From: Gnetum montanum
Taxonomy: Eukaryota; Plantae; Gnetophyta
NCBI GenBank assembly: GCA_015680685.1
Contig: MNCI01002237.1
Coordinates: forward strand, 72,648 to 136,647
DNA length: 64,000 bases
Direction: 5' to 3'
Part shown: positions 3,150 through 63,900 of the stretch, in pieces
Position numbering within the stretch: the first letter of the stretch is position 1
Layout of the letters: every line of letters starts with the position of its first letter
Translations under genes and position numbers: made by a program
Notes under the pieces: generated by a model
The model's input: the letters and a program-made list of their open reading frames with translations, nothing else
The model's database searches: none
What the model was told of the DNA's origin: nothing

Positions 3150-5651
3150 ATAATGAGTACTCTAGGAATGAAGGAAGTGATCAAAAGTAGAGGAGATTCA
3201 TCCATAGTTTTAGAAGCCTAAATCCATGTACCTTTTGAGGCACTAAAAATCCCACTATAGCTATAGAATGGTTGAAGGGATTAGAAAAAGCATTCTATAG
3301 CTTACATTGTTCTACCATATAAAAGACCTCTTTAGGCTTATATTAGTTAGATGGCATGGCTAAGTGATGCTAGGAGGTAGAGCAAAGAGTTAGACAATGA
3401 AAAGTTGAAGAAATAGAATGTGAGAAATTCATTGAAGTATTTAAAGATAAGTATCTCTCTAAAGCCTCTTAGAGATGAAAGGAGATGAGTTTAATAGACT
3501 AATTCAAGGATCTATGTCTATCTATGAGTATGATAATAGGTTTACTAAACTATGTGAGTATGTTCCCCTATGTATTACAAAATGAAGTCGTCCATACTAG
3601 GAAATTTGTAAAGGGATTAAGACCCTTCATCAAAACTATAGTTGTAGCATTGGCTTTGGATAATTATAAAGAAGGATTAACTAGACCCATTACTGTCAAA
3701 AGGGAACAGATGGAGGATTCCACTAGAAGAGAAAGAAAAAGTAATAAAGTATTTATGACTAGAACTAATAAAGGAAAATTCAAGCAGTCCAAGGGAATAA
3801 ATGGTCTAATTTAGCAATAGCCTTAAGGATTTAACAGACTAGTGCAATAGCAACCTAGGGGATTTAATGGACTAGTTCAACCATTTAATTTTAGGATACC
3901 ACTAGGATCTAATATTTTCTTTTATCATAATAAAGTTGGCCATATTAAAAAGGATTGTCCAAAGTTGCTTTAAAAAGATAATATTATGCAAAAAAAAAGC
4001 ATTGAACCTATGATTCTGAATCCTAGAATTGTCCAATAAAATAGAGGAGAAATTGTTAATAATCCTAGGATGGCTTAGAAGAATAAAAATATTAGCAATA
4101 ATTAAGAAACAAGTCAAAGATCTATGAATCAAGGTTGGATATATGCTATACTAGATAGAGATATAAAGGAGTAACTTAACATTGTGGTTGAGACTAAAGG
4201 TATGCTTTATGCACTATCTATCCTTATTCCTTTTGATCTAGGAGCAGGTCATTCTTTTATTAATAGTCAAATAGTGGAAAGACTAAATTTAACATTTGAA
4301 AAACTAAAAATTCAATCATTTTTTCAAGCTATGGGATGCAGTGGATACATAGTAGAATATGTGTGTAGGAAGCTTCTATTAAGAATACAAGATAAGGAAT
4401 GGTATACATATTTATTTATTATAGAATTAGGAGAATATGATAGTATCTTAGGAATTAATTAGTCAATCAGATATAATGGGTTTGTTTATTGCAAAACTAA
4501 GATTGTACAACTAGACTTAGGGGATGAGCAACAAGTCTTGGTTGTAGCTAAAGGAAGATCCATTAAGGTTTCTTTAGTTTCCTCTAAGAATTTCATGAGA
4601 ATGGTTAGGAAAGGACATAATTGTTTCATGGTTGTTGTTAAATCTTAAAAAAATGAGGATGATATAGTTGATATTTCAGTGATCAATGAATTTCTAGATG
4701 TATTTACAAAGTAACTATCAAGGTTTCCTTCAAAAAGAGAAATAGAGGTAGAAATCACTCTCAAACTAGGAACAGAATGAATTTCTAAGGCATCATATCA
4801 CAGATCCCTAGTTGAGTTAGTAGAGCTCAAGATACAAATACAAAAACTTTTAGACAAAGATCTTATTTAACCCAGGGTTTTCCCTTGGGGTGCAACATAT
4901 TATGTTTGAAAAGAAAAGATGAAAATTTAAGGCTATACATTGATTATAGATGGTTGAGCCAAGTTACTATTAGAAATAAATATCCTCCACCTAGAATAGA
5001 TGATTTATTTGATTAGTTGAGGGATGTAGCTATATTTTCCAAACTACACTTAAAGTACGGATATCATTAACTAAGAATTAAAGAAGAAGATGTCTTGAAG
5101 ATTGCATTTAGAGCAAGATATGGACATTATAAATTTATTATATTATCATTTGGGTTAATGAATGTTCCTTTAGTATTTATGCATTTACTGAATAATGTAT
5201 TCAAGTCTTACTTGGATAAATTTAAGATAGTGTTTATTGATGATATTTTGGTATATTCTAAAATTGAGGGGAAATATGAAGAATAGTTTAGGAAAGTATT
5301 ACAACTTCTAAGGGAAAATCAATTATAAGCCTAACCCTTTAAGTGTTTGTTTTGGCAAAAAGAAGTAAAATTTCCTGGTCAAATAGTATTAAAAACAAGC
5401 ATAGCAATTTATCCAAAGAAAACTCAAGTAATTTAGGCTTGGAAAGGCATAATATTGTAACAGAAGTAAGGAGTTTCTTAGATTCAGGTAGTTAGTATTG
5501 AAGGGGCATTAAAGATTTTGCTGGAATTACATCTCCATTTCAATGGATAGAAAAATATGAGCTCACATTTTAAGAATTAAATAAATATCTCACATCAACT
5601 CCTATTTTAGTAACATCAATTTCAAGCAAACAATTAGATGTGTATACTGAT
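3150..5651 (+). pseudogene. Element A gag-protease-RT-RNase H (5' part), many stops and frameshifts
   Basis: FEGTKNPTIAIEWL gag motif; degenerate zinc knuckle GHIKKDCP ~3940; protease LIPFDLGAGHSFI; RT IAFRARYGHYKF...VFIDDILVYS; RNase H cut at VYTD. Confidence 0.9.
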
Positions 5652-6584
5652 TGATGAGACGTGATATCGCGTCATCCCCTGCGATATCGCATATGCGATA
5701 TCGTAGTCCGCCGCCAAATCTATAAATAAGAGGCGGCACTCCCCTTATTTCCCATCCTAGGCTTAAAGTGGGAAAACTCTAGAAATTTGATCACTCCAGA
5801 GATAGAATATTTTCCATGTGCCCGCAGTAGGAGTCCCCAAGTGATCGGATCTTTATTCAGCAACTTTGTACCTGAACGCAAGTTATGTACAGCAATAAAG
5901 ACGAGCTTTGTGGATAAACCTTGCAGTGCATGGAATAGGATTTATTATTTGTTATTTCTTACCTGTTATTTATTACCTGCATTAGTGCGGCATGAGTACA
6001 ACTTGATTACGAGCATTGACGAATGTGTACGGCTAATCAAGGAATCGGCTGCTCATCGCGATTAGTCTCTCTCACCCTCAACTCCTAGAACGCGGGATGA
6101 GTACGACTTGATTACAAGCATCTACAGGTGTGTACGGCTAGTCCAAGAATTGGTTGCTCATCATGTTTAGGCTAGTTAAGTGCCTCAGTATGACCACTTC
6201 GAGCACGTGCGTTACGTGTGGTGATCCCAGTAACGATTAGTGTTTGGTAGCCACAGTTGCATAGTTCAGCGTGTGTACGGTAAGTGGGAATGGATGCTGA
6301 CGCTAGTTAATTTAGACTTAGGTGCTTAGTTAGAGTTAGTTAGTTCTCTCAACCCTTCACTCTTTAGCATAGGAGAAAAACTAGAAAAGACTATAAAAAT
6401 CATATATCTCGGACTTACTTAACCATACACCATGACAACAACAAGTAAGTCTGGGAAGACAACGAATGATTAACCCCAAGTGTTCCATGGGGCATTTAGG
6501 CATTTAGTCTACAGAGTTCAACTAGATCGCATGTGCTACGCTCATTTCATATGGTTGAGTGTAGGGGTACCTCACCACTCATCA
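5652..6584 (+). repeat. 5' LTR of B
   Basis: Direct repeat of 11816-12783; TATA CTATAAATA ~5720; 34-bp deletion between GATATCGC copies relative to the 3' LTR. Confidence 0.95.
5841..6300 (+). ncRNA. Array of four structured cis-RNA modules (RGUACGAC-P2-CGAGC-P3-GUGUACGGC-P2'-GGAA) in the R/U5 region of the B LTR
   Basis: Units at ~5841-5930, 5992-6056, 6096-6162, 6185-6300; helix sequences differ between units but stay complementary, while loop sequences are nearly constant. Confidence 0.7.
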
Positions 6585-6585
6585 T

Positions 6586-6603
6586 TGGCACCATTGCCAA
6601 GGA
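6586..6603 (+). promoter_or_regulatory. PBS complementary to tRNA-Asp (Athila-type)
   Basis: TGGCACCATTGCCAAGGA is a G>A decayed form of TGGCGCCGTTGCCGGGGA. Confidence 0.8.
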
Positions 6604-6724: not shown

Positions 6725-9700
6725 ATGCCTTCTTCTCATAAGAGCAACTCACCACCTAAGGATCATACACGAGACAGTCGACAACATAAAACACATAACC
6801 AAAATCAACCAAGTCCTAAAAAATATAAAATGACATATACTCATCCCGATGAGTATATCCCCAACTTTACTTTTATTCTCCATCAAGATGAATAGCTACG
6901 ATGGAGAGATTTTTAAGGTAACATCGTGTTACCCCCAGATCGAGCAATCTCTCACATGCTTTTCTGTGCCTTGGCACAGATTGACATGCAAGAGCATTTC
7001 ATGAAATACATTGTGAAAGATTTTGATATGAGGGATTATTATCCCACAGATGCCCAACGTATGCGAGACTTAAGGCAGGAGAGTCAACATGCACTTCTGA
7101 AGGCCAAAACCCCCCACATCCTTAGCGAAATAGGAGATGAAGAACCCCTTATCACAGGTTCTTTAACCAATGACGTTCCCCCTCCTAACGATGGTGAGGA
7201 GGAAGGATATCAGAATCTACAATCAACAATACATATCCCTGGTTCTGATGCCCGTGAACACTAGTTTTTCACAAAGGGAACAACCACTTATGCCAAGGAC
7301 AGGCACTTAGATCGTCACCATGATCAGGGTCGTAGCAGCCGAAGAGAAGGCAAGAAACATCGCCATGGCGATGGTTCCCCATCTTCTTCTCCTTCATCCC
7401 ATCATTCACCCTCTCCTTCCACATCTGGGTGTAGCCACCATGAACATAAAGGTGAGGATAAAAGTAAGAAAGATGAAAGACCTCGACGGAAAAGTTGAGA
7501 GAGAGGACAAGGGCAAGGATGTAGGGAGAGTAGGGAACGACGCAAACATCACAGGTGTCATGAAAGAGATGATCATGATGAACCCCTACTCACAACCTGA
7601 AGTATGCTTAACATAACAGAGGTAGTCAGGATTCCCACAAGGCATTTAAAGGATAGTCGGATCAAATGATTAGACATGAACAATATTCCACGATTTGAAA
7701 GGGGATACAATGCTGATCCACAAAATCATTTTCAGGCATTCCACAATGCCTGTGCCTATAGAATATAGACAGTGAGTGGCAAAAACTTAAGTTATTCCCA
7801 AGGACACTCATCAAAGAAATAGAGAGCTGGTACCAGTCCTTAGAATCAAAAACCATTAGGAGGTTGAGTACGATGCTAGAACTATTCAACAAAAAGTATC
7901 AAACGTACTCCAGAGTGTCCAATTTGCGTAAGCAAATCCAAGGCTGAAAGAAAGGTCATCACAAACCCTTGGATGCTACCATGGCCTGCTATTACACATT
8001 GTTACATCATTGCCCGGGCCATGGGTACGCTTAGCGAGATCAACTTCGCCACATCGTGGATGGGCTGAGGCATGAAACTAGAGGAACCCTTGGGACTTAT
8101 GCCCAAGGGCGATTATCAAAACTTAGAGCCCATGAAGTACAAATTTTGTTGGAGCAAGTAGCAAATGAAGAAGATGAGCTACGCAAAAGGGAAAGTGTGG
8201 AAGAGTACAACCATGATCCCTCCCTTCGAAAGAAGGAAGTGAAATTTTGTGATGAAGAGGATGAGTTACCACTCGAAGAGTTGGTGAACCGGAAAACCTT
8301 GACAATCCAAAAATTAACAACAGAAATAGTGGCTAAGGTAGATGACATATGGACTTCCTTAGACTCTAAAATTGAAACCGTCTTAAAAATTGTAGAAGAG
8401 TCTAAGGTAGAACAAAGTAGTGATAAAGGTACGCAAAAGTGGAGAGAATTAGGCCCTGCACATAACAAGGGTAAGGGAAAAATAACTAACTCTAATGTGG
8501 CTGTGGATTCTGACACAGAAAATGATAGTGGATGTGGGGTCTGCTACTATGAACATCCTAAAGGATGTTGCCCAGTTATCTCACATCTACAGGAGTCTGG
8601 GGTGTATGCACTTAATCTAAGACTCAACCAATGGCAAACACCCCGAAGGTTACCTTATCCACAAGGTAACCCAAGGCAGTTCCACCAACCACTAACATCT
8701 TATCCAATTGGAACTCCCCCATAGCCCATCAGACAGCATCAATAATGGCAATACCCACAGTCATGGGGGATGCCATCACTGAAATATTAGTACCCTTACC
8801 AGAAGCCTGACCCCTATGGATATTATGTGCAGCAGCCAATTTCTCCAAGTGACTCTATGAGTCACTCAACTCCCAACCATCACTACCAAGTTTGGGAGTA
8901 CTTCAGAAGGACTCCTTCTCCTTCGGGAGATACTCCATACCCACACCATCCTCCTAATCCATCCGCACTCTTCCACCACAAGTAGTTCCCGTAACACCTC
9001 CTACTCCAACAATGCAAGGGGAACTTCCTCCTCAACCACAACAATGTCACGCTGCGAGAGTTGTAAATATCCAACCTACTGCTGGATCTGAGAACTATAA
9101 AAAGAGAAGACCTTACTTCAGAACCAAAATCCTAGACAAACTCTTGCAACAATAAGCGGTTGAGTCCTTGTACACTCCTCCACCATCCAACACTTCGGAG
9201 CACCCTGTAGTCCAATAGAACTTAACGCATACGGTTATGTTAACGCATACCGTAACTAACTGGATCAAGGTAGGTCACCTTCCTAGGAAACTAACTGACC
9301 CTGGAAGTCCCTTAATCTATTTACGGATCGTCAAAAATGAACCACATAGGACTCTTCTTGACTCAGGTTCCAGAGTCAACTTAATTTCATGAGAGATGTA
9401 TCACACCTGGAACCTGCCCCAACTTAAGAAGAGCAACATTCAACTAAAGCTGGTAGACCATTCCATCATCATTCCCTTGGGATTAGTGGAGGACATCATG
9501 ACCACTGTGTGTGGTTGGTCTTACCTAGCTGATTTTCTGGTGATTGAAGTGAACAACAATGAAGGGGACTTCCCAATTATAATGGGAAGGGCATGGCTAA
9601 GTACAGTAGATACATGCCTTAGGATCCGCGATCTTTCCTTGGAAATCTCTAAGATAAACATTTGTGGAAAGATCGAGAAGAGTAAAGTTCCATGCATCAC

Positions 9701-9990
9701 ATACAGTGATTCATCGGGTGATGACATGGAGGAAATGTCTCCATGTAATAGGTGTGCCCTTGAAACTTTGCAACAAAGATGCTTGTATGTAGCAACCACA
9801 CAACCAGTAGTAGACACCTCATGGTTGATAGCTACTAGAAGGAGCAAAAAAATATGCTTGGAATGAACTGAGGAAACCCATGCCAACAACGAAGGCATAG
9901 ATACATTGGAATATGAATGTCGCCAACTTCCACCCCTTAGTCTAAGATCATCATTTGGGAGAAGTTGGGAACTTCTTAGAAATTCAAATA
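6725..9990 (+). pseudogene. B gag (long N-terminal extension) and aspartic protease
   Basis: KLKLFPRTL..ESWYQSL..LLHHCPGHG retrotrans-gag core; KLTDPGSP..LLDSGSRVNLI..PIIMGRAWL protease; few stops, mostly TAG/TGA from CAG/CGA. Confidence 0.9.
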
Positions 9991-11815: not shown

Positions 11816-12783
11816 TGATGAGACGTGATATCGCATGGGCCATGATATCGTGACCACCGCGATATCGCGTCATCCCCTGCGATATCGCGTACGCAATATC
11901 GCAGTCTACCGCCAAATCTATAAATAAGAGGTAGCACTCCCCTTATTTTCCATCCTAGGCTTAAAGTGGGGAAACTTTGGTAGTTTGATCACTCCAGAGA
12001 TAGAATATTTTCCATGTACCTGCAGTAGGAGTCCCCAGGTGAATGGATCTTTATTTGAGCAGCTTTGTACTTAAACACAAGTTGTGTACGGCAATAAAGA
12101 CGAGCTTTGTGGATAAACCTTGCAGTGCATGGAATATGATTTATTATTTGTTATTTCTTACCTATTATTTATTACCCGCATTAGCATGCCATGAGTACGA
12201 CTTGATTACGAGCATTGACGAATGTGTATGGCTAATCAAGGAATCGGCTACTCATCGTGATTAGTCTCTCTCACCCTCAACTCCTAGAACGTGGGATGAG
12301 TATGACTTGATTACGAGCATCTACGGGTGTGTAAGGCTAGTCAAGGAATCAGTTGCTCATCACATTTAGGCTAATTAAGTGCCTCAGTATGATCACTTTG
12401 AGCAAGTGCGTTACGTGTGGTGATCCCAGTAATGATTAGCATTTGGTAGCCACAATTGCATAGTTCAGGGTGTGTACGGTAAGTTGGAACGGATGCTGAT
12501 GCTAGTTAATTTAGACTTAGGTGCTTAGTTAGAGTTAGTTAGTTCTCTCAACCCTTCACTCTTTAGCATAGGAGAAAAACTAGAAAAGACTATAAAAATC
12601 ATATACCTCAGACTTACTTAACCATACACTATGACAACAAGAAGTACGTCTGGGAAGACAACAAATGATTAACCCCAAGTGTTCCATGGGGCGTTTAGGC
12701 ATTTAGTCTGAGGAGTTCAATCGGATCGCATGTGCTACGCTCATTTTGTATGGCTGAGTGTAGGGGTACCTCACCACTCATCA
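11816..12783 (+). repeat. 3' LTR of B
   Basis: Follows PPT TGGGGGTA; near-identical to 5652-6584. Confidence 0.95.
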
Positions 12784-13685
12784 CTGATGCTTCAAATGAA
12801 GGATTAAGATGCATCCTCATGCAAGAAGGACATGTCATCTCCTATTCTTCTTAACACTTAAAGAATCATAAAGTTAGATATCCTATGCATAACATGGAGT
12901 TAGCAACTATTATTTTTCCACTAAAGATATGGAGATATTATTTATTTAGAGAGAAAATAGCCTTGTGAATAGACCATAAGAGTTTGCAATATCTTATGAC
13001 CTAGCCATAATTAAATTTCCAGCAAAGAAGATGGATTGAATTACTTGTAGACTTTGATTTTGATATTAAATATCATCCTAGAAAAGAAAATGTCATGGTA
13101 TATGCACTTAGTAGATAAATTAGAAGGATAAATAGCTTGATCATGTAATTAAGCCTAATGGATGAGATTATTGAAGAACAAAGGTCAAACACATGGTGCT
13201 AAGAAAAGCTTTAAAATTAGGTCAAATTTTCCCCAATTATTTACTAAAGGGAGATAAAGGTGAGTTAAGATTCAAAGGTAGATTATTTGTATCCAAAGTG
13301 GTAAGAAAAAAACTATTGGAAGAGGCTCATACCAATAGATATTAGATGCATCCTAGGGATGATAAAGTATTTCAAAAATTGAGAAGACAATATTGATGTT
13401 CTAAGATGAAGCAAGAGATAGCTAAATTTGTTTTTGAATGTTTAATTTGTCAACAAGTTAAAGCAAAACATCAAAAACCAAGAGGATTACTTCATGTTCA
13501 TGACATACCATAATGGAAGTGGGAGGTTATTAGCATGGACTTCATTTTAGAATTACCAAAGATAAAAAGGAAACATGTTGCTATACTATTATTGGCAGAT
13601 TCACTAACAAAATCTTCTCTTTTTTTTTTGCTACCCATTCCACCTCAACTACTAAGGATATTACTAAGTTATTTATTAACAAGAT
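12784..13685 (+). pseudogene. Element A RNase H and integrase N-terminus
   Basis: DASNEGL..YPMHNMELA..DHKSLQY; HHCC zinc finger; WEVISMDFILELP. Confidence 0.9.
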
Positions 13686-14563
13686 TAATGAAGCATCATG
13701 GTTTGGCCACATTGACGGGATGTCATTGACACATCCTTATTGATAAGATCTCATTGACATGAGCCCATCAATGCAGGATTTGACCTATTGACGTGTACCC
13801 ATCAATGGGGCACCCTATTTTTGCCTATAAATATGCACCTTCCACCACATTTATGACATCAAGTCTCATAGTTACAATAAAGCTCTAGAAATTTCTCCAC
13901 TTGAAAGTTAGAATATTTTGTAAGTGCCCAAAGCAAGAGTCAAAGGGTGTATGGATCTTTATTCGAGCACTATTGTACTTGAGCACTTTAGTATGTGTAG
14001 TAATAAAGATAAGCTTTTTGATCAAACCTTGTAGAACATGGACTAGATTAATTATTTGTTTATGCATCTAATATTTTAAGCAATTTTCTTTAATGTGTTA
14101 AGTAATTAAAGTATTTAATTAAGATAAATTAAATACTAAACATAAGTACGACCACTTTAGGCATACATGTAATGCTTGGTAATCCCAGTAACACTTAATG
14201 ATTAGTAACCAAATAGTGTTATACATGTTTAGGATGTGTACAACAAGTGGGAATGGATGCTTATGTTAGGATTAGTTAAGTGTTAGTTACTTGTTAGATT
14301 AATTTAGCAATTAAATATCTTTATTCATTATTCTCTATTCTTAGTGACTTGGAACATAAAATAATAAAAATCATATACCTCAATTATACTTAACCATGCC
14401 CTTGTACTTACAAGTGTAACTAGGAAGACAACTATTACAATAGTTGATTCACATCTCACACTAGTGTGCATAGAAACCCCAAAAGTCCTTGGAATTCAAC
14501 TAGATTATGTGTAAATTCTTGTGATTCATATGGTTGGGTGTAGGGTCTACTCATTGCTCATCA
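13686..14563 (+). repeat. 5' LTR of C
   Basis: TAATGAA...CTCATCA; homologous to 41857-43732 once the solo-LTR insert is removed. Confidence 0.9.
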
Positions 14564-17700: not shown

Positions 17701-20700
17701 AATCTAAAATTGAAAAGTACTTATATGTAGTATCCACAAAACAAGAGGGTACCCAGTGGTTGATAGTTAATCCTTAAAGTAGCACACTTAGCATGGAACC
17801 AATTGAGAGCTTAACATGTGCCTATGTTAAGGGCATGAATGAATTAGAATAAGTTCATCACCAACTCTCTGATGTTGAACCAGATGACATCTATTGAGGA
17901 GAGTTAAATATCCTTAAAAATTTTAAGCAAGAGCCCCTAAAGTTGAAAACTCTACTTGCTGACATAGACTATGCTTTCCTAAAAAATGCCAAGGTGATGA
18001 TAATTAATTCTAACCTTGCTCTTGAATAGAAAAAGATGTTGTTGAAGGTGATCAAAAAATGGTCAACAACCTTTGCTTGTTCATATCATAAAATCACTAG
18101 GATTGATCTTAGAATATGTCAGCATCACATCTATATTGATCTATCCGTCAAGCCAAAGAGGTAGTCGTAGTGATGGTTGAACCCCAAGCTAAAGCATATC
18201 ATCAAAGAGGAAGTTGAATAACTCCTTCAGATATGGTTCATCTATCCAATTGCACATAGTGAGTGAGTTACTCCAGTTGTAATTGTGCTAAAGAAATATG
18301 GAAATTTAAGGGTGTGTATTGATTTTAAACTATTAAACAGGATGACCTACAAAGATCATTTTCCATTGCCATTTGCGGACCAGGTGTTGGACACCATTTC
18401 TGGGAATTTCTTCTATAGATTTCTATATGGTTATAATGGTTATAACCAAATTCAAATTTCACTGAATGATTAGGCCAAAACTATATTCACAAGGTCTTGG
18501 GGGACTTCTACATATCGAAAGATGCCATGTGGTTTGTGTAATGTCCCTACAACTTTCCAATACTTTGTCCTTAGCATTTTTCAATAGTAGATTGGTAGCA
18601 AGTGGAAGTATTCATGGATGACTTCTCCACATATGGTGCTATGTTTGAGTAGGCCCTAGAGCACCTTGAGAAAATTCTTAAAAGGTGTGTGGAGACCAAT
18701 CTTTAGCACAATTGGAAAAAGAGCCATTTGATGGTCTAGGAGGAAATTGTATTGGGACATAAAATTTGTCAAGAAAGGATTAAGGTGAACCCTAAAATGA
18801 TTAGGGTCATCCAAGAAATAACCCATTAGTCAGAAACCATTAAATATCTCTAGTCATTCCTTGGATACACTAGCTACTACCAAAAAATCATATAGAATTT
18901 CTCTAAGATTACTAAACCGTTAGTCGAGCTTACGAAGAAAGATGCTTCATTTTTATGGATCGAGGAATGTGATTAGGCATTCCAAAAACTCAAAGAAAAG
19001 CTTGTAGAAACTCTAATTTTACAAGTACCTAATTACTCTTGTCCATTTCACATCATGAAAAATGCATCAAACTATGCCTTAGGAGTAGTGCTTATGTAGT
19101 TGGACAATCAGAAACATCATTATTACATCCACTGTGCAAGCCAAAGCATTGTGGGTGCATAGCTCAACTACACCACGATGGAGAAAGAGATAATGGCAAT
19201 GGTGTATGCCTTAGAAATGCTTAGGCACTATGTGCTTGGATACAAGATCTTTATGCACATAATTCATAGTGCCATTTGCTTCTTCATGAACAAGTTGATG
19301 GTGAACCCCCATGTCATATGGTGGTTGGTGATCTTACAGGAGTTTGATCATACAATTGTAGATCGAAAGGAAACTAAGAATGTGATTACTAATCACTTGT
19401 CTTAGATACAATGGGACAACAAAGAGGAGGAGAGTCCATCTTTTGATCAATTTCTTGATGAACTCCTCTTTGTTGGTTCAATAAATGAACAAGTACCCAA
19501 TGAGCCTACATTGTAGGATTACATCCTTACTTATCTTCCCACTCAGGAGATGCCATAAGAGTTAGACCACTGAAAAAAAAACAATAGTTTCTTCATCAAG
19601 CCAAATGATTCATGAAGCTTAACGGACACCTTTATAAGGTATGCATTGATGGCCTGGTTCATTGGTGTGTTCTTGATGCCAATCAACTACAAGTTCTTCA
19701 AGATGTTCATGAGAGTTCACATTGGGACCACTATGTAGGAAGATGCATGACCATTAAGATCCTAATGAAAAGGTATTAATGGCCAACAATCTTTAGAGAC
19801 ATCCACAAATTTATCTACTCTTGTGAATGCTATCAATGAGATGATGAGATGACTACTCAAATGGAGGGGCCTCAGCAATGGATCTAACCACTAGAACCCT
19901 TTGATATCTAGGGAATTAACTTCATGGATCCCATCACACCCATGTCAAATAAAAGGGTATACATTATAGTCACTATTAACTATTGTACAAAATGGATAGA
20001 TGTAGTAACCATCACTGATTGTACATCTTTCACTACTACTTGGTTTTTCCAACAAAATGTTGTAAATAGGTTTGGGGTGCCACATGCACTGATTTCTAAC
20101 AATGGTACTTATTTTACAAGTTGTACTTTTTGCAAGCTTATGCAATTCTTTGGGGTTGAGCATATATTAACACCACCTTACCACTTCCAAGCCAACAATT
20201 AAGCAAAGGTTACCAATAGGAAGATCAGTAAGATCTTAATTAGAACAATAAGAAAATATAGGAGAGACTGGAGCACAAAAATCAACAATTCCCTCTAGGC
20301 ATATTGCTCAACATGAAAACTTCCTATAGGCTATTCTCCCTATGAGTTGGTGTACAAAAAATTACCAACTCTTCTAGTCCAATCCAACCTCTATATACTT
20401 TCAATAGCCTGTAGCCTTAACCTTGACCTTAGCCTAGCATAAAAAGAAGGATTGATTAACCTTAATGTATTAGATGAGAATTGATTGGTGGCCCTATCAT
20501 TAAATGAACTACACAAGGCATTCAACAAAAAAAATCTATGACCTCAAAATTAGAAAAGTGAAATTTCAACTTGGATACAAGGTCCACTACTAGAACCCCA
20601 CACATGTGCCATAACGAATCAAGTTCCAAACATTATGGGAAGGCCCTTACATAATTTATGAAATATTTCCTTTTGGGGCCATGTTGATCTACAAACTTGA

Positions 20701-21209: not shown

Positions 21210-22795
21210 TGAAATAGCACCAAATTTGGGTCACTGTGTCTCAACTACAAATTTGTCTAAGTGTTGACACAAGGCAAATTTTTTTAAAATGTTGGGCCTA
21301 TGCTCTCCACCACTAAGGCTACACTCTAGAGCATAGTCAACATAGTCTAAAAAAAACTCTATATTTGCAAGATCTTTCAAAGTGTTGATGGCAGCTACAA
21401 ATTTCACTAAGTGTCAAGCAAGAAGCTATCAAGCTTGGTTGGCATGGAAGAAATAGTTTGGCAAATTTTCTAACTACTATGACTATGCTCCCTATTATGC
21501 TCTAGAGTGTAGTCAACATAGTCTGCATGAAGACACTAGTTCTATAAAAAAAATTTAACTATTGAGGCTATGCTCTCACTGCTAGGACCACACTCTAGAG
21601 CGTAGTCAGCATAGTCAGTACTTGAACACATATTATTGCAAAATTTGTCTAACTGGTAGGACTACGCTCTAAAGCGTAGTCAGTGTAGTCATGCAAAACT
21701 ACCTCCATAAGCCTCTAGAACTTAGAATTGGGCTTCATCTTAGCTCCAACACAACTTCAATAGGAAAGATCAACAAATTTTCTCTCTTTTGCCACCCAAT
21801 TTGCCCCTAAATTGTACTTATGCTCAACACCACTCAAGAGAGTAGACATCATAGGCCCGAAGTGTAGTCTTCAAAACTACACTATTTTACACTATTTTTA
21901 GGTACATTGTGGTCTGTTTGACCCTTCCACATGTAGTTTGGATAGCATAGTCATAGTTTGGTAGTCTTGCAAAGTCCATTGAAGCACACTAGTAGAACAC
22001 CATTTTCTTCATTAGGAGCATAGTTGGGTGCAACGTAGTCCCAACTACCCCTCTACCATGAGGCACCCAATCTAGAATTCACAGTAACCCTAATCCTATA
22101 AATACCCCCAATTCTCTATGTTTTATGGGTTGGCAATTCTTGCATTCAATTGGCAAAATTTCATTCTGAGCATTCTCACATTCAAGCACACTTGGCATTT
22201 TAGTAGACTCTAGATTGACACGTGACATTGTTGCACACCACCTAGCACATCATAGGCCACCGCAACCCATGGGACACCACAATAGCCAACTCAGTAGGCA
22301 TATACTTCATGGAAAATGTTAGTCTTCATAGCCTAAAGATCCTAAGACTATGACTACACTACCTATTGCACCTATTTATACATCGTGTACCTCTTCACCT
22401 TTTCTTGCAGTTAACTATGCTCCCCTCATTTGGGGTGGTGTTTCTTTCTCTCTTGCTCATCTCCCTTGAATTTTAGCATTTTCCCTTACATTTTAACATT
22501 CTACCTGCATTTTTTGCTATTTTCTACACATACTTGCATGTTTGCACTTTCGTTTTTCACCAGAAACCTTAACTACGCTCACCCTTGTTAACATCATGAA
22601 TGTCACGAACACCATGCAAACCCTTAGCATTCATTTTGGCATTGCACTCCTTAAGTCCTAGTTTGACTGACAAGATCATTCTAGGCACCGTGTATCCATT
22701 TCTTGTAGGCCATCACATGGATGCAAGGTCAAACTGTGTGCATTGCAAACCTTTCAGTGTACCATTTTAGCCTCTAACATTTTTTTTTCACTACA
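21210..22795 (+). repeat. 5' LTR of D
   Basis: Homologous to 36521-38177; TATA CCTATAAATACCC ~22097. Confidence 0.9.
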
Positions 22796-22801
22796 ATTTT
22801 T

Positions 22802-36520: not shown

Positions 36521-38177
36521 TGAAACACAACCAAATTTGGGTCATCACATCTCAACTAGAAATTTGTCTAAGTGTCAACATAAGGAAAATTTTTTCTAAG
36601 TGTTGGGCCTATACTCTCCACTGCTAGGACTATGCTCCAGAGTGTGGTCAGTGTAGTCTACAATAGAGGTCCAGATTTGAAAGATTTTTCTAAATGTCAA
36701 CAATAGCTACAAATTTTTCTAAGCATGGGAACTACACTCTGACTACCAAGACTATTCTTCAGAGTGTAGTTAGCACACCAATGGCCAATTTTGCAAATTT
36801 TCCTAAGTGTCAAGCCAAAAGTTGTTAAGCTTAGTTGGCATGGAAGAAATAGTTTTGCAAATTTTCTAAGTGTAACCACACTCCCTACTATGCTTTAGAA
36901 CATAGTTAGTGTAGTCTACATGGAGATACTAGTTTTGCAAAATCTTTCAAACTACTGAGGCTATGATCTCACTACTAGGACTATGCTTTAGAGTGTAGTT
37001 GGCACTAGAACACATTGTTTGCAAATTCTATCTAACGATTGGGACTATGCTCTAGAGTGTAGTCAATGTAGTCATGAAAAACTACCTATAGAAGCCTCCA
37101 AAACATAGCATTGGCCTTCATCTTAGCTCCAACACACATCCAACAAGCAAGATTAGCAAATTTTCTCTCTTTTTCCCCTTCATTTCCCTCCAAATTGTGC
37201 CTATGCTCAACACCACTCGAGAGAGTGGACAACGTAGTTATAGAGCATAGTCAAAAAAACTACACTATTTTGCATTGTTTTCAAGTACATTGCAGTTTGT
37301 TCAACACTTGCACATGCAGTTTGAGTCATGTAGTCATAGTATGGTAGTCTTGCAGAGTCCATTGAAGCATACCAGTAGAACACCATTTACTTCATTGGGA
37401 GCATTGTTGGGTGTAGTGTAGTCCCAACTATCCCTCTACCACATGGCAGCCGATCCACATTTCACAGCAATCCTAATCCTATAAATACCCTAGTGATCTA
37501 CATTCTATGGGTTGGCAATTCTTACATGCAATTGGCAAAACTACATGTTGAGCATTCTCACATCCAAGCACACTTGGCATTTCAGCAAACTCTAGATTGG
37601 CACTTGGCACCATCGCACACCACCTAGCACATCGAAAGCCACTGTAGCCCATAGGACACTACGAAAGCCAACCTAGTAGGCATAAACTTCATGGTGGATG
37701 TCATTCTTCATAGCATAGACATCCTAAGATGATGACTACATTGCCTTCTATGCCCATTTTTACACCACGTACTTGCTCATCTTTTCTTTTAGTTGACTAT
37801 GCTCCCCCCATTTGGGGTCATGCCACTTTCTCTTTCCCTTATCTCCTATGCATTTTTAGCATTTTCTCTTGCATTTTAGCATTCTACTTGAAGTTTTTGC
37901 TATTTTCTGCACATACTCATGCATTTGCACCTTCATTTTGCACTGGAAACCTTGACTATAGTCACCCTCATTAACATCATAAATGCCACAAACACTATGC
38001 AAACCCTTAGCATTCATTTTGGCATCGCACTCCATAAGTTACAATTCAATCAACAAGACCATTCTCAGCACCCCATCTCTATTTCTAGCAAGCTCTCACA
38101 TGGATGTGGGATCAAACTATGTGTACCACAAACCTCTCAATGTACCATTCGAGTCTTTGACATTTTTGGTCACTACA
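36521..38177 (+). repeat. 3' LTR of D
   Basis: Follows the PPT; homologous to 21210-22795. Confidence 0.9.
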
Positions 38178-39004
38178 AGGCAATGAGCCCATTTCATCCA
38201 CTTATTCACCAACTTTATGGTCTTTCTTGTTTTGGAAATATGAGGTCTCTTTTTCATTAATGAAACTTTAANTAAAAATTCATAAAAATATAAAATTTAG
38301 AAAAACATGATGGGAATTCAAAGCACATCCCCTAGACAAAATAATGGGCTACAAGCATTGGTTATGGGACTAGAAACACATGTTACCCATGCTTGAAGGT
38401 CCCCTCTAACTAGGGCCCTTTCTCACTTCTTACTTCTTTTTTCTTTCCAAATAAGGAATGGTGATTGATCTATCAAAGCATTCTTATGTCTCCAAGGGAT
38501 GGTCTGGTCTTAGAGTAGTGATGAAGAGTCACTGCAAGTGGCTAATTTTTATCTATACCGAGGGACTTTCATGGGTCATTTTAACATAAAATCCACAAGG
38601 GATTTCATGTGATCACGATTAGGAAATCCATTCCATATTTTCTCACATCCATTAATGCTTTTCATAATTCACCTCACTACTAGTTTCCATGTCTTATTCA
38701 ATGTCTTAGCTTGATGTGTTGGAGTTCTTAGGTAGATTCTTTTAGATTCAATCCTTAACTTTTCATAACCATTAATCAATTGTAGGATCCATGAACTCCT
38801 TATTTTGAATATATGTAAGGGTAAAAAGGGCATGAGCCTACTATGGNNNNNNNNNNNNNNNNNNNNNNNNNNNNNNNNNNNNNNNNNNNNNNNNNNNNNN
38901 NNNNNNNNNNNNNNNNNNNNNNNNNNNNNNNNNNNNNNNNNNNNNNNNNNNNNNNNNNNNNNNNNNNNNGAAATATTTAATATGGAAAATTTTCTAGAAT
39001 AGCT

Positions 39005-41856: not shown

Positions 41857-43732
41857 TGATGAAATGTCATGATTTGGCTACATTGATGAGATGCTATCAA
41901 TGTGACCTTGTCAATGGGATCTCGTCAACAAAGTGTTTGACCCATTGACATTTACTCATTGACAAGTCATCCTATTTTTTTCTATAAATGTGCACCTTCC
42001 ACTACATTTATGTCATCAAGTGTCATAGTTGCAGCAAAGCTCTAGTAGTTTTTCCACTTGAAATTTACAATATTTTCTAACTACCCACAATAGGAGTCAA
42101 AGGGTGTATGGATCTTTATTCGAGCACTGTTGTACCTAGGCACTTTAATGTGTGTGGCAATAAAGATGAGATTCTTGATCAAACCTTGCAACACTTGGAC
42201 TAGATTAATTATTTATTTAAGTATTTAATATCTTAAGCAATTTCATTTAATGTTTTAAATTATTAAAGTAGTTAATTAAGATAAATTAAATAGTAAACAT
42301 AAGTATGACCACTTCAAGCATACGTGTAACGCTTGGTGATGAGTGGCGAGGTACCCCTACACTCTACCATACGAATACGAGCGTACACGCGCGATCCGGT
42401 CGAACTCCGCAGACTAAATGCCTTAACGCCACAAGAAACACTTGGGGTTAATCGTTCGTTGTCTTCCCAGGCTTGCTTGTATGTGTCACGGTGTATGGTT
42501 AAGCAAGTCTGAGGTATGTGATTTTTTTGGTATTTTCGGCTTATCTTCTATGCTACCAGGAGAAAGGGTTGAGAAAACTAAACTAACTCTAACTAAGATC
42601 TAAGTCTAAATTAACTAGCGTCAGCATCCGTTCCCACTTGCCGGACACACCCTGAACTATGCAACTGCAGCTTACCAAACGCTAATCGTTACTGGGATCG
42701 CCACACGTAACGCAAGTGCTCGAAGTGGTCGTACTGAGGCACCTATTTAGCCTACGTGTGATAAGCAGCCGATTCCTTAGCCAGCCGTACACACCCGTGG
42801 GTGCTCGTAACTAAGTCGTACTTATCACACGATCTAGCCTAGCAATGAGCAGCCGATTCCTCAACTAGCCGTACACATTAGACCCGGGAGTTACCAAGCG
42901 CAGAATCCTGGAATACGCTACTGGGTTACCAAGCATCCAATGCTCGTAATTGAGTCGTACTCATGCATTGCGTCAAGCAGCCGATTCCTTGACTAGCCGT
43001 ACACGTCCGTAGACGCTCGTAATCAAGTCGTACTTGAACGCACTAGGAAAGCAGTAAATGAAAGCAATAAATGAAACCACGTGCTGCAAGGTTTATCCAA
43101 ACAAGTTCGTCTTTATTGCCGTACACAACTTGGGTTCAGGTTACAAGCTGCTCGAATAAAGAGCCGTTCACTCTAGGACTCCTACTGCGGGCACAGGGGA
43201 AAAATTCTAACTCTGGAGTGATCAATCTGCCAGAGCTTCGCTACACTAGCCAGGATTGGGAAATGAAGGGAGTGCCGCCTCTTATTTATAGATATGGCGG
43301 CGGGACGCGATATCGCGTACGCGATATCACAGGTGAAGACGCGATATCGCGGCCTAGTGAAAACCGCGTCTCATCACTTGGTAATCCCAGTAAGATTTAA
43401 CGTTTGGTAACCCAATAATGTTATACATGTTCAGGATGTGTACAACAAGTGGGAACGAATGCTTATGTTAAGATTAGTTAAGTGTTAGCTAGTTGTTTGA
43501 TTTATTTAGCAATTCAATACCTGTATTCATTATTCTTTATTCTTAGGCCTTAGTTACACTTAACCATCCTCTTGTACTTACAAGTATAATTGGAAAGAAA
43601 ATGATTACAATAGTTGATTCACCTCCTAAATCAGTGTATGTAGAAATCTAAAAGTCCTTGGAATTTGACCAAATTGTGCATAAATGCTTGTGATTCGTAT
43701 GGTTGAACATAGGGTCTACTCGCTGCTCATTA
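41857..43732 (+). repeat. 3' LTR of C, interrupted by solo LTR B'
   Basis: Starts TGATGAA after the PPT; ends CTCATTA before the TSD. Confidence 0.9.
42337..43376 (-). mobile_element. Solo LTR B' of the B family, antisense
   Basis: Reverse complement homologous to the B LTR; TGATGAG/CTCATCA ends; perfect TSD CTTGG (42332-42336/43377-43381); CpGs largely intact, so young. Confidence 0.95.
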
Positions 43733-56050: not shown

Positions 56051-56122
56051 AGGCTGGATTTCGAAACTTTGAATGAACGGCAGCACATGCATGCCTCTGT
56101 ACTAGTCCTGAAACTTTAAGAC

Positions 56123-58944
56123 ATGGCAATTGGATGTATCGATACTCTGAATTTGCCATTTCATCAGAAACGCAGCAACCTTGCAATGGAGAGCAACACT
56201 CACGTTCACCACCGCTGTGTTATCTTTGCTTTCACAATCCTCTTGTGCTGCTTCTGTTGCTGCGTCACTCACACCTGTCCAATCTGCGGCTCAGAAAATT
56301 ACACAGAGGGCACTCAGTATGCCAGAAACGTGGAGACTGTGATGGATAACTTGATCAAGGCGTCAAAACAAGCTGCAGCGTTCAATATTTCTGTTGTTGG
56401 GAACGGAAACGATACAGTCTGTGGCCTGTTCCAGTGCAGAGGAGGCAAAACAGCGTCCGAGTGTTTTGCTTGCGCTCAAAGTGCCAAAAGCGATCTGCAT
56501 CAGAACTGTAAGCAGAAACGCACAGGCTCAACCTGGACCAATGAAACGTGTTTTATGAGATACAGATGTGATTATTTCATAAACCGTCTGGATCTCAATT
56601 ACGCCAAGGTGGTTGATTGCGGTGACGGTGGCAATGTTTCGGACCCTCAAAACTTTAACCAAGTTGTGAGGGAGCTTCTCACCAATTTGTCAGTCCAGGC
56701 CGTGTCTTCTTTCAGCACAAGATATGCGTCAGGCTCTGCCAATTCCACCATACTCACCGTTTACGGCATGGTTCAGTGCTGGAAAGATCTTTCCACGGAT
56801 AATTGCAAAACTTGCTTGGATGATAATCTGGCCTACATGTTCAACAAGTACAGTGGAATCAGAGGAGCCGAGATTGTCGGCCAAAATTGCCTCACTCAGT
56901 ATGAACCAGATGAGTTTTTCAGACCCACAAATCCGCCTCCTGCAAGTTTTCCTAATTCTGCATCTTCCCCTCCTCCAAAGGGGTCAGGTGAGAGATCTTC
57001 CACATTTTCCTATTCTTGGCCCCTTTTTTTGCCCTTTTTCTTTGTTGTTGCTATACTGAATGTTTCTTAATCTACAATCAGGCGATCCGTACAAATCCAA
57101 CTTGCCAAGAAAGTCATTTTAGTGTAATACAAAGGAATTAGCTGAGTGGTAGGAGCCGTCGTATAGAAACACACGTTCCACGTTCGATCCTAATAAGCAC
57201 TAATGAGTTATGAGTAAAATAAAAAAACAAAGAAATTCCTTTTAGGGCCTGACGGACTAAGTAAGAACCCAGATTTATATGCAGTTGTTTTAGTTGGTAA
57301 AGTAGGTCTGTTTTGGACTTTGTTAAAAAATGCAAACCGTCCCTTTTTTGTGTTCCATGTTGCATATTTCCTCTGCACTTCTTTTGTACTTTTGCGCTGC
57401 TTTTATTTATAAAAATTACCAAATTAGTAATGACTGTTCTGTTATTACGTTTAATTGTCAAACTTGCTTTATCAAATTCTGGAAGGGATACTTTCTTTCT
57501 AATGATATTATCTAAAGTCTTGCAACGCATTGTAGAGAATGAGAAATTTAAAAAATGTTTTAAAATTTATCTATAAAATATTAGATTATAAGACATTGAA
57601 AGTTTTCAAATTACCGTTTTTTTATGTGATACCGGGACCAGATAGAAATCTCCTTAGATGTTTGATTATGTGCTTAGATGTTTGATTATGTGTGGATATG
57701 CAGGTGGATCAAAAAGTAAAGTAAAGGTAATCGTGGTCGCCGTTGCAGGTTCTTTTTTCATGGTGCTTTTGATCTGTGGATGTTGGGTTTTTTTGGCTAA
57801 AAGAGAAAGGAAAACACCAGTTATAGGTATTACCNNNNNNNNNNNNNNNNNNNNNNNNNNNNNNNNNNNNNNNNNNNNNNNNNNNNNNNNNNNNNNNNNN
57901 NNNNNNNNNNNNNNNNNNNNNNNNNNNNNNNNNNNNNNNNNNNNNNNNNNNNNNNNNNNNNNNNNNNNNNNNNNNNNNNNNNNNNNNNNNNNNNNNNNNN
58001 NNNNNNNNNNNNNNNNNNNNNNNNNNNNNNNNNNNNNNNNNNNNNNNNNNNNNNNNNNNNNNNNNNNNNNNNNNNNNNNNNNNNNNNNNNNNNNNNNNNN
58101 NNNNNNNNNNNNNNNNNNNNNNNNNNNNNNNNNNNNNNNNNNNNNNNNNNNNNNNNNNNNNNNNNNNNNNNNNNNNNNNNNNNNNNNNNNNNNNNNNNNN
58201 NNNNNNNNNNNNNNNNNNNNNNNNNNNNNNNNNNNNNNNNNNNNNNNNNNNNNNNNNNNNNNNNNNNNNNNNNNNNNNNNNNNNNNNNNNNNNNNNNNNN
58301 NNNNNNNNNNNNNNNNNNNNNNNNNNNNNNNNNNNNNNNNNNNNNNNNNNNNNNNNNNNNNNNNNNNNNNNNNNNNNNNNNNNNNNNNNNNNNNNNNNNN
58401 NNNNNNNNNNNNNNNNTTTTTCAGCGGTTACATGTCTCCTGAGTATGCAATGAAAGGTCAATTATCAACCAAGGCAGATGTGTATAGCTTTGGTGTTCTT
58501 ACTTTGGAAATAATCAGTGGAAGAAAGAATGGGGACTTTGACGTATCCAGTGGGCAAAGCATTTTGACCAAGGTATAATGTCGTTTGCCTGGTGCGTCAA
58601 ATATACTTCTGAATCAGTTTCAACAAAATGCCACAGGAAAACTGACATTTTATATTTTTCAGATATGGAGATTATTTCAACAAGGAAATGTTGGGGACAT
58701 TGTTGACAAAAGTATGGCATCAAACATCTCATATGAGCAAGTGATAAGGTGCATTCATGTGGGGTTTCTATGTACACAAATAGATGCATCTTTAAGACCA
58801 CCAATGTCTACAGTGTTTTCGATGCTCACAAGTGCATCCCTCACCTTGCCAGAACCAGCAGAGCCTGCATTTTTGAGTTATAAGAGTGACAATGATGACA
58901 GGTCTAATGCCGAAAATCAATCAAGTCTGACAGTCCCTCGATAA
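56123..58944 (+). CDS. CRK: Cysteine-rich receptor-like kinase (double DUF26/Gnk2 ectodomain, TM, Ser/Thr kinase); visible exons 56123-56987, 57704-57826, [gap], 58425-58572, 58663-58944
   Basis: Signal peptide; two C-X8-C-X2-C motifs ([26 protein letters not shown]); [25 protein letters not shown]; kinase subdomains VIII-XI; C-terminal P.P.EPAF...S.TVPR; middle kinase exons are hidden in gap 57835-58416. Confidence 0.93.
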
Positions 58945-60993: not shown

Positions 60994-63900
60994 AATAGAT
61001 TAATGATTTATTTTTGCATTTACTATTTTCATTAATTAAGCTAAATTAGACTTGAATTGATTAATTAATTAAGTTAAATAGATTAAACACATAAGTACAC
61101 TGCTTTGAGCATAACATATAACACTTGGTAATCTAAGCAACGCTTAACGCTTGGTAGCCCAGCAGTGTTGTATGCGTTCAGGATGTGTACAGAAAGTGGG
61201 ACCAGATGCTTATGTTATTATAGGTAGTTATTAATTAGCAATTAGATTAGTTAAATTGGTTCATAAGTTAAGTTTCAACTTCTTGTTAATCATAGATGAA
61301 TAAAATATAAAATAATAAAAATCATGTGCCTCAATTACACTTAACCATACAACTAAAGCTCTACAAGTGTAGTTGGGAAGACAACAATCATCAGGATTAG
61401 GTTTCATATTTTGGAACCAGTGTACATGGGAATTTAAGATCTACAGAATTTGACTAGATTGCATGTAAGCACTTGTAATTCATATAGTTGGATGTATGGT
61501 ATACTAATTGTTCATCATTGGCGTCATTGTTGGGGATCTTTAGTTTGTTACATGTGCTATCTATGACTTAGTGAAAATTATTCAACATTGTTGGAATGAA
61601 CTCTAAATTCATATCATACTTCAAAATAACTACAAGAACACTAAGCTAGCACATTGTATTTCTTGTCTTCTAATACAAGATGTCTTCTTCTAACAAGAGT
61701 GGTTCTTCACCCAAGTCTAACACAGTAAATCAGTAGGTGCCCTAGCAATACAAAGTGGTATATGTTGATCCTAATGAGTATGTATCAAATTTCACCTTTT
61801 TCCTACACCAGGATGAACTACTGTAGTGGTGAGACATGGAGGGCAACATTGTGTTTCTACTCAATTGATCCATTCCTACGATGCTCCAACAAACTCTTAT
61901 TAAGTTGGCCATCTAGGGGCTTCATGTTGAATATGTTGTGTAGGAAAGTGATGTGAGGAATTATCATCCTACTGATGCACAATGCCTAAGGGATCAATAG
62001 CTAGAGCAACGTTACAAATCTAGAAAGGGAAAGTGGTTCAATGATTTTTCATTCTTGATGTATCAAAAAGATGGTGGAGAACCCTTCTTTATGGGCTTTC
62101 CATTTAGAGAGATTTCTCTCTTTGAATTAGATGAAGGAGGTCAAAACTAGAACTTGTAATCCATGAAAAAGGGGGATCCAAGGAGGAGAGTTATGGTAGG
62201 GATGCAAGCAAGTAGAATGATCATGATCATGGCCATGACCATTGAAGAGGGGTGGAAGGTGTTGTGATGGTGCTAGTCCTCCTTCCTCTTCACCTTCATC
62301 ATCATCTTCTCCCTCTTCTAGCTCTGAAAACAATCATGATGGCAATGACCAATGGGACTGAGATGATCATAGGGATTATCAAGAAAGTCAAGATCTAGGG
62401 TGCAAGCATTCAAGAGAGGCCCATCACCACAAATAAAGGGGTAGCAAAGGGCATTGTAGGCACAAAGATCATGGCTACGATAACCCTTTGCTTACTACCT
62501 AAAGCATGCTAAACATTGTAGAGGTGGTGAGAATTCCTACAAGGCACATAAAGGATAGCTAGATCATGAGGCTAGACATGAACAATATCCCCAAATTCGA
62601 AGGGGCATATAACTCAAATCTATAGAACCATTTTCAAGCTTTTCATGATGCCTGTGCCTTGGAAAATATAGAAAACGACTAGTAAAAGTTTACATTATTT
62701 CCTAGGACATTCATTAAAGAAGCAGAAAGTTAGTATCGGTCCTTGGAGTTAGAATCAATTAGTTGATGGAGTATGATACTTGAACTATTTAACGACAAGT
62801 ATTAAACATACTCCCGAGTGTCCAATCTGAGAAGGTAGATCCAAGGTTGGAAGCAAGAAACACATGAGTCCTTGGATGTTGCCATGGGTAGATATTATTT
62901 CTTATTACACTGATGTTCTAGCCATGGTTATTTTTAATAGAAGCAACTTTGCCATATCATAGATGGACTTAGATCAAAACGAGGAGAACTCTTCGAGTCT
63001 ATGCTCAAGGGTGATTGTCAAAGTTAAGAGCTCATTAGATCTAAAGGCTGATCGAGCAGGTAGCAAAAGAAGAAGAAGAGTTAAGAAAATGTGAAAGTAT
63101 AGAAGAATACAACTGAGATCCTTCCATTTACAAAAGGGAGGTTTGATTTTGTGATAATGAGGAGGAATCATTACTTGATAAGATGGTAAATTGAAAAACC
63201 TTACGGATTCAAAAATTTACCTCTAAAATTTTGACTAATGTAGATCAGTCATGGGACTCTATGGATAGTTTATTTCAAGATATCCTGAAAATTACTGAAG
63301 AGTCCAAAGAACAAGGTAGCGATTGTGACTATAGGAGGTGAAAGGAAGTTGAACATGCCAATCAACAAGGTAAGGGTAAGATTGTTGTAGTAGAGTAAGT
63401 TGCAGAAACTAAATCAGATGATGATGTTGGGTGTGACATTTGCCAATATGAACATCCTAAGGGGTGCTGCCCTATTATGTTACACTTATAAGAATCTAGG
63501 GTGTATGCTCTAACTCCATGACTAGCTAAAAGAAAAACCCCTAGAAGATTGTCTTATCCTTAAGGCAATCCTAGGTAGTTCCATCAACAATAACAATATT
63601 ATCCAAGTGAAACTTCATTGCAACTATACGAGCAATATCAATAGTGGCACCAACCATAATCATGGGGGATGCCACCACCAAGGCAGCAATACCCTTACAG
63701 ATAACCATATTCATATGGGTATTACGTTCAACAACCCTTATCTCCATTTGGCTCTTCTAGTCACTTTTCTCCTTTTCAACATCACTACTACCCTCTTGAA
63801 TACCATAGAGCTCATTCTTCACATTCCAGGAGGGATACCACATTCTATCCTTATTGTGCTCCTATTCCTCCATCCTCAATGCAGCTACCACCTACTCCAT

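Follow-up and report, generated by a model that had tools for sequence, protein, structure and literature searches.

A repeated internal loop in covarying predicted hairpins within the LTRs of probable Athila retrotransposons

Related LTR motifs and the host elements

Structured motifs have been described in the long terminal repeats (LTRs) of other plant retroelements. Retrozymes display one hammerhead per LTR, a non-coding interior and a 4-bp target duplication (PMC4918200, in excerpt) and are set apart by motif, target duplication and coding content (PMC4918200 and PMC6765202, both in excerpt). The LTR arrays of Sireviruses consist of palindromes located upstream of the TATA box of Ty1/copia elements (PMC4728375, in excerpt). 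The units described here share with retrozymes the presence of a conserved RNA motif in the LTRs of plant elements that are Ty3/gypsy-dependent (PMC4918200, in excerpt), but no hammerhead is found, the target duplication is 5 bp long, the interior is coding and the LTR measures about 1 kb. Like the Sirevirus arrays they are stem-loop motifs present in variable number in plant LTRs; unlike them, they occupy a position downstream of the TATA box, form no palindromes and have stems that covary around an invariant loop.

The window, i.e. the whole stretch of 64,000 nucleotides that was analyzed, contains elements of three families of Ty3/gypsy retrotransposons designated B, C and E, which on the basis of their sequences probably belong to the Athila lineage. 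The main features of these elements are as follows.

5652..6584, + strand: 5' LTR of element B, with TG...CA ends and, together with the 3' LTR, a 5-bp target duplication (5647-5651 / 12784-12788)
5720..5728, + strand: TATA box of the B 5' LTR, about 70 bases from the LTR start
6586..6603, + strand: primer binding site of element B, beginning with TGG, which we take to be of the tRNA-Asp type
6725..9750 (approximate ends), + strand: broken gag and protease of element B, from translations read by eye
11816..12783, + strand: 3' LTR of element B, 91% identical to the 5' LTR
18288..19345, + strand: broken RT and RNase H of element C (Pfam: RVT_1 below cut-off, E 0.001; RT_RNaseH_2, E 2.6e-24)
42337..43376, - strand: solo LTR B', with a 5-bp target duplication, 84% identical to the B 5' LTR

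Element B is 7.1 kb long. Its gag, translated and read by eye, comprises a long N-terminal extension and a zinc knuckle, and its neighbors in the atlas carry Retrotrans_gag (0.82-0.87), to be taken as a lead only. Element B is considered non-autonomous because no RT, RNase H or integrase was seen in its translations by eye. Element C has a gag and a full but broken pol in the order PROT-RT-RH-INT, where RT and RNase H were assigned by Pfam and protease and integrase by eye; a protein search with its RT returned one relative, at 61% identity. An additional aRH domain is a mark of the Tat lineage (PMC6317226, in excerpt), and none was seen by eye between RH and INT of element C. A TGG-type primer site follows three 5' LTRs and 5-bp target duplications were found at both insertions checked. 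The domain order, the 5-bp duplications and the TGG primer site are the reasons for the Athila assignment, and Asp is listed among the primer tRNAs of non-chromoviruses (PMC6317226, in excerpt). The third family is represented by a truncated LTR, E, near 61 kb.

The solo LTR B' interrupts, in the opposite orientation, the last unit of the C 3' LTR (42332-43381 with its duplication). It is CpG-intact, with an observed/expected ratio of 1.15 versus 0.28 in the window. B' was found in 20 of the 24 public runs listed, at least half of its words being present in 18 of them, across 12 studies and nine organism codes. Contig records on B' numbered 56,000-93,000 per DNA run, with differences consisting mostly of C>T and G>A. 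In these public reads, the B' family is a high-copy family in several related organisms.

Two side observations can be made on the surrounding sequence. Palindromes of the GCGATATCGC type occur in variable number upstream of the TATA box of the B-family LTRs (5660-5705, 11822-11905 and 43300-43352); these repeats are a closer match to the Sirevirus arrays than the units are, and may be DNA-level sites. In addition, an intact-looking ORF (56120-57070) with two Stress-antifung (DUF26) domains is a host gene located among the repeats, and a protein search with it returned no relative at E 1e-20.

The units and their internal loop

Eighteen units were extracted by coordinates from six LTR copies of the three families: four from each B LTR, five from B', two from each C LTR and one from E. 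They are located 115-670 bases downstream of the TATA box. This box is kept in all five aligned LTRs, in one of them with one change, and its position places every unit downstream of the likely transcription start.

5837..5910, + strand: unit 1 of the B 5' LTR, with head-to-head loops and an 8-bp stem containing AATAAA (5894-5899)
5992..6056, + strand: unit 2 of the B 5' LTR, with tandem loops, an 8-bp P2 and a GACG apical loop
6097..6161, + strand: unit 3 of the B 5' LTR, with tandem loops, decayed by C>T and G>A
6185..6300, + strand: unit 4 of the B 5' LTR, with tandem loops, a 6-bp P2 and a 68-base P3 insert that has its own conserved hairpin
12035-12109, 12191-12255, 12296-12360 and 12384-12499, + strand: four units of the B 3' LTR
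43175-43103, 43037-42973, 42964-42845, 42831-42755 and 42737-42621, - strand: five units of B'
13943..14018, + strand: unit 1 of the C 5' LTR
14142..14264, + strand: last-type unit of the C 5' LTR (unit model E 0.0012)
42100..42175, + strand: unit 1 of the C 3' LTR
42299..42336, + strand: last-type unit of the C 3' LTR, 5' half, interrupted by B'
43382..43466, + strand: 3' half of the same unit
61091..61213, + strand: last-type unit of the truncated E LTR, decayed (unit model E 0.19)
6215-6250, 42880-42935, 42665-42705, 14170-14215 and 61120-61160: sub-domain of the long P3 inserts
6408..6455, + strand: separate 13-bp hairpin near the LTR 3' end, which covaries between B, C and E
6556..6581, + strand: terminal inverted-repeat hairpin adjoining the primer site

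Upon extraction, the units, their strand, their copy numbers and all the P1 and P2 pairs listed in a preliminary description of this DNA were found again. The two units of the C 3' LTR, one of them split by B', are additions to that list. When the window was searched for the inner loop with a closing helix of 5 bp or more, 13 matches were obtained, all in these LTRs, as compared to 0-2 (mean 0.4) in Markov shuffles (n=20). When a unit model was built from the seven units whose P2 is 8 bp long, the next matches were five untrained units (E 4e-6, 3e-5, 0.001, 0.1 and 0.19), among them unit 4 of the B 5' LTR (E 3.4e-5), all on the sense strand and ahead of the first unrelated match. A second pair of direct repeats (21398-22796 / 36794-38178, 78% identity), probably the LTRs of another Ty3/gypsy element, served as a negative control and gave no match with the unit model.

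Each unit can be modeled as a rod bearing two copies of a single 3x7 internal loop, in which CGA stands opposite GWA(U)CGGM. The loop amounts to about ten bases, its two copies are 6-8 bp apart on the rod, up to ten copies occur per LTR and natural hairpins are 65 bases long. In unit 1 the two copies face each other over the 8-bp stem with exact twofold symmetry; one base of the inner CGA strand is missing from unit 1 of the B 5' LTR. The computed fold of each of the 13 remaining units has AGUA base-paired to UGCU and CGA facing GAA(U)CGGM; the outer loop is then a tandem, same-direction copy of the inner one. The twofold symmetry initially ascribed to all units therefore stands, exactly, for the five copies of unit 1, and gives way elsewhere to a tandem arrangement. 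The proposed GUACGAC...GGAA template fails for unit 1, whose outer loop is identical to its inner loop, while the 6/7 likeness between GUACGAC and GUACGGC is real in the remaining units. The tandem reading accounts for the conserved CGGC/CGGA that was missing from this template.

A sarcin-ricin/loop E motif consists of an unpaired AGUA opposite GAA between helices. Both the AGUA and GAA strings are present in the tandem units, but with AGUA engaged in the UGCU pairing mentioned above the computed fold leaves the sarcin-ricin reading unsupported outside unit 1, in energy models that do not score the motif. In the predicted ensemble, the CG of each loop strand is part of a short helix of 2-3 bp, and GWA and GM are open. 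A kink-turn is made of a three-base bulge followed by G and A on the bulged strand, with tandem G-A pairs; by inspection, no register of GWACGGM/CGA gives a bulge-G-A without breaking a flanking stem, and this candidate was rejected.

The invariance claimed for the loops holds in the CpG-intact B', where CGA is intact in all ten loops, although the window is CpG-depleted, and where 9 of the 10 long strands agree with the motif. At the exception, position 42644, the motif base is found at about half of the depth in three of four DNA runs. The invariance does not extend to the six tandem units of the B LTRs, which display 15 loop changes; 14 of these correspond to C>T or G>A, in agreement with decay following insertion. 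The last unit of both C LTRs has GTACAAC as its inner loop, owing either to decay common to the two copies or to a genuine difference between families. The UACG apical loop was likewise confirmed in part: it is present in two of the six units with a short P3, the others having GACG (two), CACG (one) and UACA (one). The long P3 inserts contain a second conserved sub-domain, CCAG-UA-RCG paired with CGY-UUGG, in which an A-U to G-C change is observed in unit 3 of B'.

The units fall into three P2 classes with two P2 lengths and no sequence common to the classes, and the loop is kept across families even though their flanking LTR parts now align poorly. One loop in two orientations, associated with three unrelated P2 sequences of two lengths, indicates that the loop is the conserved unit.

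Covariation and evidence at the RNA level

In the seven units with an 8-bp P2, 97% of 168 cells are paired and two-sided changes are found at 10 of 24 pairs. None of 500 shuffles reached either the pairing or the two-sided values, and pairing fell to 22-43% in a control where the partners were slid. Units 2, 3 and 4 of B', compared pairwise, show 7, 6 and 5 two-sided changes over 20 pairs, together with two changes on one side only, where pairing is maintained as G-U; no pair is broken and none of the 21 loop positions differs. The corresponding permutation p values range from 5e-6 to 4e-4 for the 20 pairs and from 6e-4 to 4.5e-3 for the 13 variable pairs, with pairs counted on the same sequences that gave the structure and with rows shared by the three comparisons. 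The sample consists of units from one window. The seven-unit and B' counts agree with each other on the compensatory helix changes around nearly invariant loops reported in the preliminary description.

A pair in which both bases undergo a transition remains a pair by default, and double changes are favored by CpG decay. Two of the 18 two-sided changes in B' are transversions, and one P2 change is explicable by decay of ancestral CpG on both arms. Across unit types, transversion pairs were found at one P1 position (A-U, G-C and C-G) and at another (A-U and U-A). The separate hairpin at 6408-6455 shows two-sided changes at 6 of its 13 pairs, some of them transversions.

Folding energies are unremarkable, with z-scores of -1.9 to +0.8 for six single units and -0.76 for the whole array. 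In the sliding analysis, only the 3' hairpin stands out, and not the units: the counterpart of the 6408-6455 hairpin gives the strongest local folding signal in B' (z -4.1). RNAalifold recovered P2 and P3 of unit 1; applied to the last unit and the 3' half of the LTR, it did not recover the rod of the last unit, because of decayed copies.

These ordinary energies, the variable copy number and read joints that skip whole units would be compatible with units devoid of function, generated as a by-product of local hairpin duplication during reverse transcription. Such neutrality is nevertheless extremely unlikely, as the stems of B' diverge at about one third of the pairs and the loops at none, and as the loop outlasts the alignable flanking LTR across families. 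Covariation, the B' counts and the unit model together support the original proposal of a strand-specific RNA structure that is under selection and has multiplied as a cassette.

The strand is indicated by several observations. The sense fold is more stable than the antisense fold in all five units of B', and no variation is seen at the G-U pairs of the sense strand. Stability of UNCG loops is restricted to RNA (PMC8794818, in excerpt). A role at the level of DNA was also considered, in which clustered GTAC would be SBP/SPL sites and the matched stem changes would originate from template switching. B' contains 11 GTAC in 1.04 kb, 8 of them in units, versus 2.3 per kb in the window; SPL proteins recognize a GTAC core (PMC13666632, in excerpt) and template switching can yield compensatory changes (PMC8794818, in excerpt). 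However, half of the loop copies (GAACGGM, GAAUCGGC) are devoid of GTAC with their shape unchanged. Asymmetric loops, invariant G-U pairs and YNMG-type apical loops have moreover been kept, all of which would be erased by copying across the arms, and the fold is biased towards one strand. A DNA-level role is on these grounds very unlikely.

RNA-seq contigs of one study match units 2-4 with 0-1 mismatches over 68-120 bases, which indicates presence only, DNA carry-over being possible. In runs X19 and X20 (RNA-seq, one study), the pieces listed are confined to 42710-43110, a segment that corresponds to units 2-4 and a linker; 11 of 30 bins have depth, and the DNA runs cover all bins. Contig cover cannot show RNA ends or levels, and this pattern could be due either to a discrete processed RNA starting just after AAUAAA or to library bias. 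The contigs of these two runs over units 2-4 include both the B and B' subfamily types, and their organism code differs from that of the DNA holders.

Candidate functions and comparison with known systems

The stem of unit 1 is predicted to mask AATAAA, which is the only AWTAAA in B'. This AATAAA and its complement are invariant in all five copies of unit 1, from two families about 70% alike, unlike the P2 of the other units, which is variable. Hexamer and complement are predicted to be 64-98% paired, and the stem is followed by a U-rich linker in B and C; a second AATAAA-like site is present near the LTR end in C and E. In two runs guessed to be RNA, the summed depth drops about fourfold to fivefold just past AATAAA, which would fit a poly(A) site at this position, yet DNA runs also dip at the variable linker. 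In HIV-1, the poly(A) hairpin masks the poly(A) signal in the 5' LTR. By analogy, unit 1 would hide AAUAAA so that the 5' LTR would not end the transcript; units 2-5 would then be in U5 and would mark only the 5' end of the full-length RNA.

The invariant stem and the U-rich linker also lend themselves to a reading in which the whole array controls 3' ends or stability. Unit 1 would gate AAUAAA, and the rods would slow exonucleases or form a stable short RNA acting as a decoy for host silencing or RNA-binding proteins. This reading leaves unexplained why the loop flanks AAUAAA and recurs downstream, and the contig data are unable to show RNA ends; it appears quite improbable.

Searches of Rfam 15 gave no match at the gathering score in the 64 kb. 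With B' and E values up to 10, four matches were obtained, all far below the cut-off, none with a ribozyme and none on a unit, in line with the earlier statement that no hammerhead, twister, pistol, hairpin or HDV consensus is recognizable. A new self-cleaving ribozyme would be formed by each loop or by a docked pair of loops, like the hammerheads of retrozyme LTRs. A fixed loop within variable stems is the usual signature of ribozymes, G-A mismatches can be drawn in the loop, in the manner of the VS and leadzyme loops, and ribozymes are known in plant LTRs (PMC4918200, in excerpt). Conversely, the unit is a plain rod lacking a junction or a conserved pseudoknot, on which loops 6-8 bp apart cannot dock. 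A 5' LTR transcript open to cleavage at as many as ten places would presumably be at odds with the intact leader needed for reverse transcription, and no back-going joint is found among the RNA contig joints listed. A ribozyme is very improbable indeed, and the catalytic reading of the preliminary description finds nothing in its favor, either in the search, where no Rfam ribozyme model matched at E 10, or in the fold, which is a plain rod. Among other candidates, the loops of the hairpin, VS and leadzyme ribozymes differ in the opposite strand, an SRP Alu U-turn in the P3 insert and a 5S loop E as in Cassandra elements have no Rfam match, and an intron spanning the units lacks GT at the expected start.

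The leader extends over about 1 kb from the TATA box to the start of gag and contains 15 upstream ATGs in the decayed B copy; the intact B' LTR has 6 ATGs after the TATA box. The loops could be sites for a host protein involved either in the nuclear export of unspliced RNA, as with a CTE, or in gag translation past this leader by internal entry or shunting. Export elements are known in several retroelements (PMC4488727, in excerpt), and unit 1 combines two identical loops in twofold symmetry, as does the CTE. No symmetry is however seen in the computed fold of the other 13 units, and its confinement to unit 1 weakens the CTE analogy. CTE-type elements moreover lie near the 3' end, and no sequence match to any Rfam family was obtained. 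We regard export or translation sites as unlikely.

The explanation we favor, with slightly less than an even chance of being correct, is that the 4-10 loop copies in covarying predicted hairpins constitute a multivalent protein-binding platform, most likely for the element's own Gag and for packaging. A fixed loop, interchangeable stems, two orientations and a variable number point to a binding site whose number matters, and the location in the 5' leader of an LTR element makes Gag the first candidate. The fold would form in vivo, the loop CGA/GWA(U)CGGM would be the recognized part and the stems would act as spacers. By analogy with retroviruses, Gag would bind the loops in the 5' leader during RNA selection, dimerization and packaging. 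The number of units differs by family (2 in C, 4 in B and 5 in B'), B having twice as many as C, and extra units would give the non-autonomous B family an edge in protein capture. Retroviral packaging signals are mostly located downstream of the primer site and not in the LTR, which counts against the Gag packaging reading. Repeated purine-rich internal loops are multivalent protein assembly sites in the HIV RRE (PMC4488727, in excerpt). The Gag proteins of B, C and E (6725-7800 in B) share a conserved N-terminal stretch of about 100 residues, which had a single relative among 1.84 billion proteins, followed by a low-complexity region rich in Arg, His, Ser and Asp that could bind RNA.

A bolder proposal, which we advance tentatively and consider possible rather than probable, is that the 3x7 loop is an undescribed modular signal of plant Athila-type elements, tunable by copy number: either the first sequence-defined Gag packaging site of a plant LTR retrotransposon or a catalytic or nuclease-resistant unit. 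As a packaging site, it may have been amplified by non-autonomous families to outcompete their helpers; as a catalytic or nuclease-resistant unit, it may release a discrete structured RNA from every LTR.

The distribution of the loop was assessed in several collections. In IMG/VR, a first pattern gave 6 matches, all GC-rich and none similar to the window by blastn, two other patterns gave none, and a scan with the RT-RNase H piece gave no relative. The JGI metagenomes returned 31 matches, 26 without a matching 5' strand and 5 with a loose one; none had the outer strand or was similar to the window. Prokaryote genomes had no pattern match. No relative was thus found outside the plant group in these viral, metagenome and prokaryote collections, which hold little plant DNA. 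In the open-access literature searched, no description of the motif was found, nor any base-level definition of the RNA selection, export or translation signals of a plant LTR retrotransposon. Cis-acting RNA structures as such are known from LTR elements; the modular loop appears to be undescribed. The loop is a small and directly testable candidate signal. If Gag binds it, one would understand how helper proteins are competed for by non-autonomous families and why LTRs lengthen as cassettes are duplicated; should it cleave, or act as a barrier to nucleases, a new RNA activity would exist in a very large number of genomic copies. In many plants, Athila-type elements account for a large part of the genome.

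The 5'-leader packaging and dimerization signals of retroviruses and of Ty1 and Ty3 resemble the units in comprising successive hairpins, with purine-rich internal loops, near the 5' end of the RNA of an LTR element. An apical GACG loop like that of unit 2 of B also occurs in murine leukemia virus. In contrast to these signals, to which no sequence match was found, the units are inside the LTR and upstream of the primer site, and are built from one loop present in 4-10 copies and two orientations. Unit 1 resembles the HIV-1 poly(A) hairpin in having AAUAAA in a conserved stem soon after the transcription start, but its stem is flanked by two loop copies that recur downstream without AAUAAA. 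No Rev-like gene was identified in the elements of the window. The HIV-1 RRE (PMC4488727, in excerpt) and the MPMV CTE likewise bear several internal loops on rods, an arrangement that suits multivalent binding, and unit 1 is similar to the CTE in its two identical loops in twofold symmetry. The present units differ from both in belonging to the LTR of a plant Ty3/gypsy element, in being symmetric in unit 1 only and in their 5' position.
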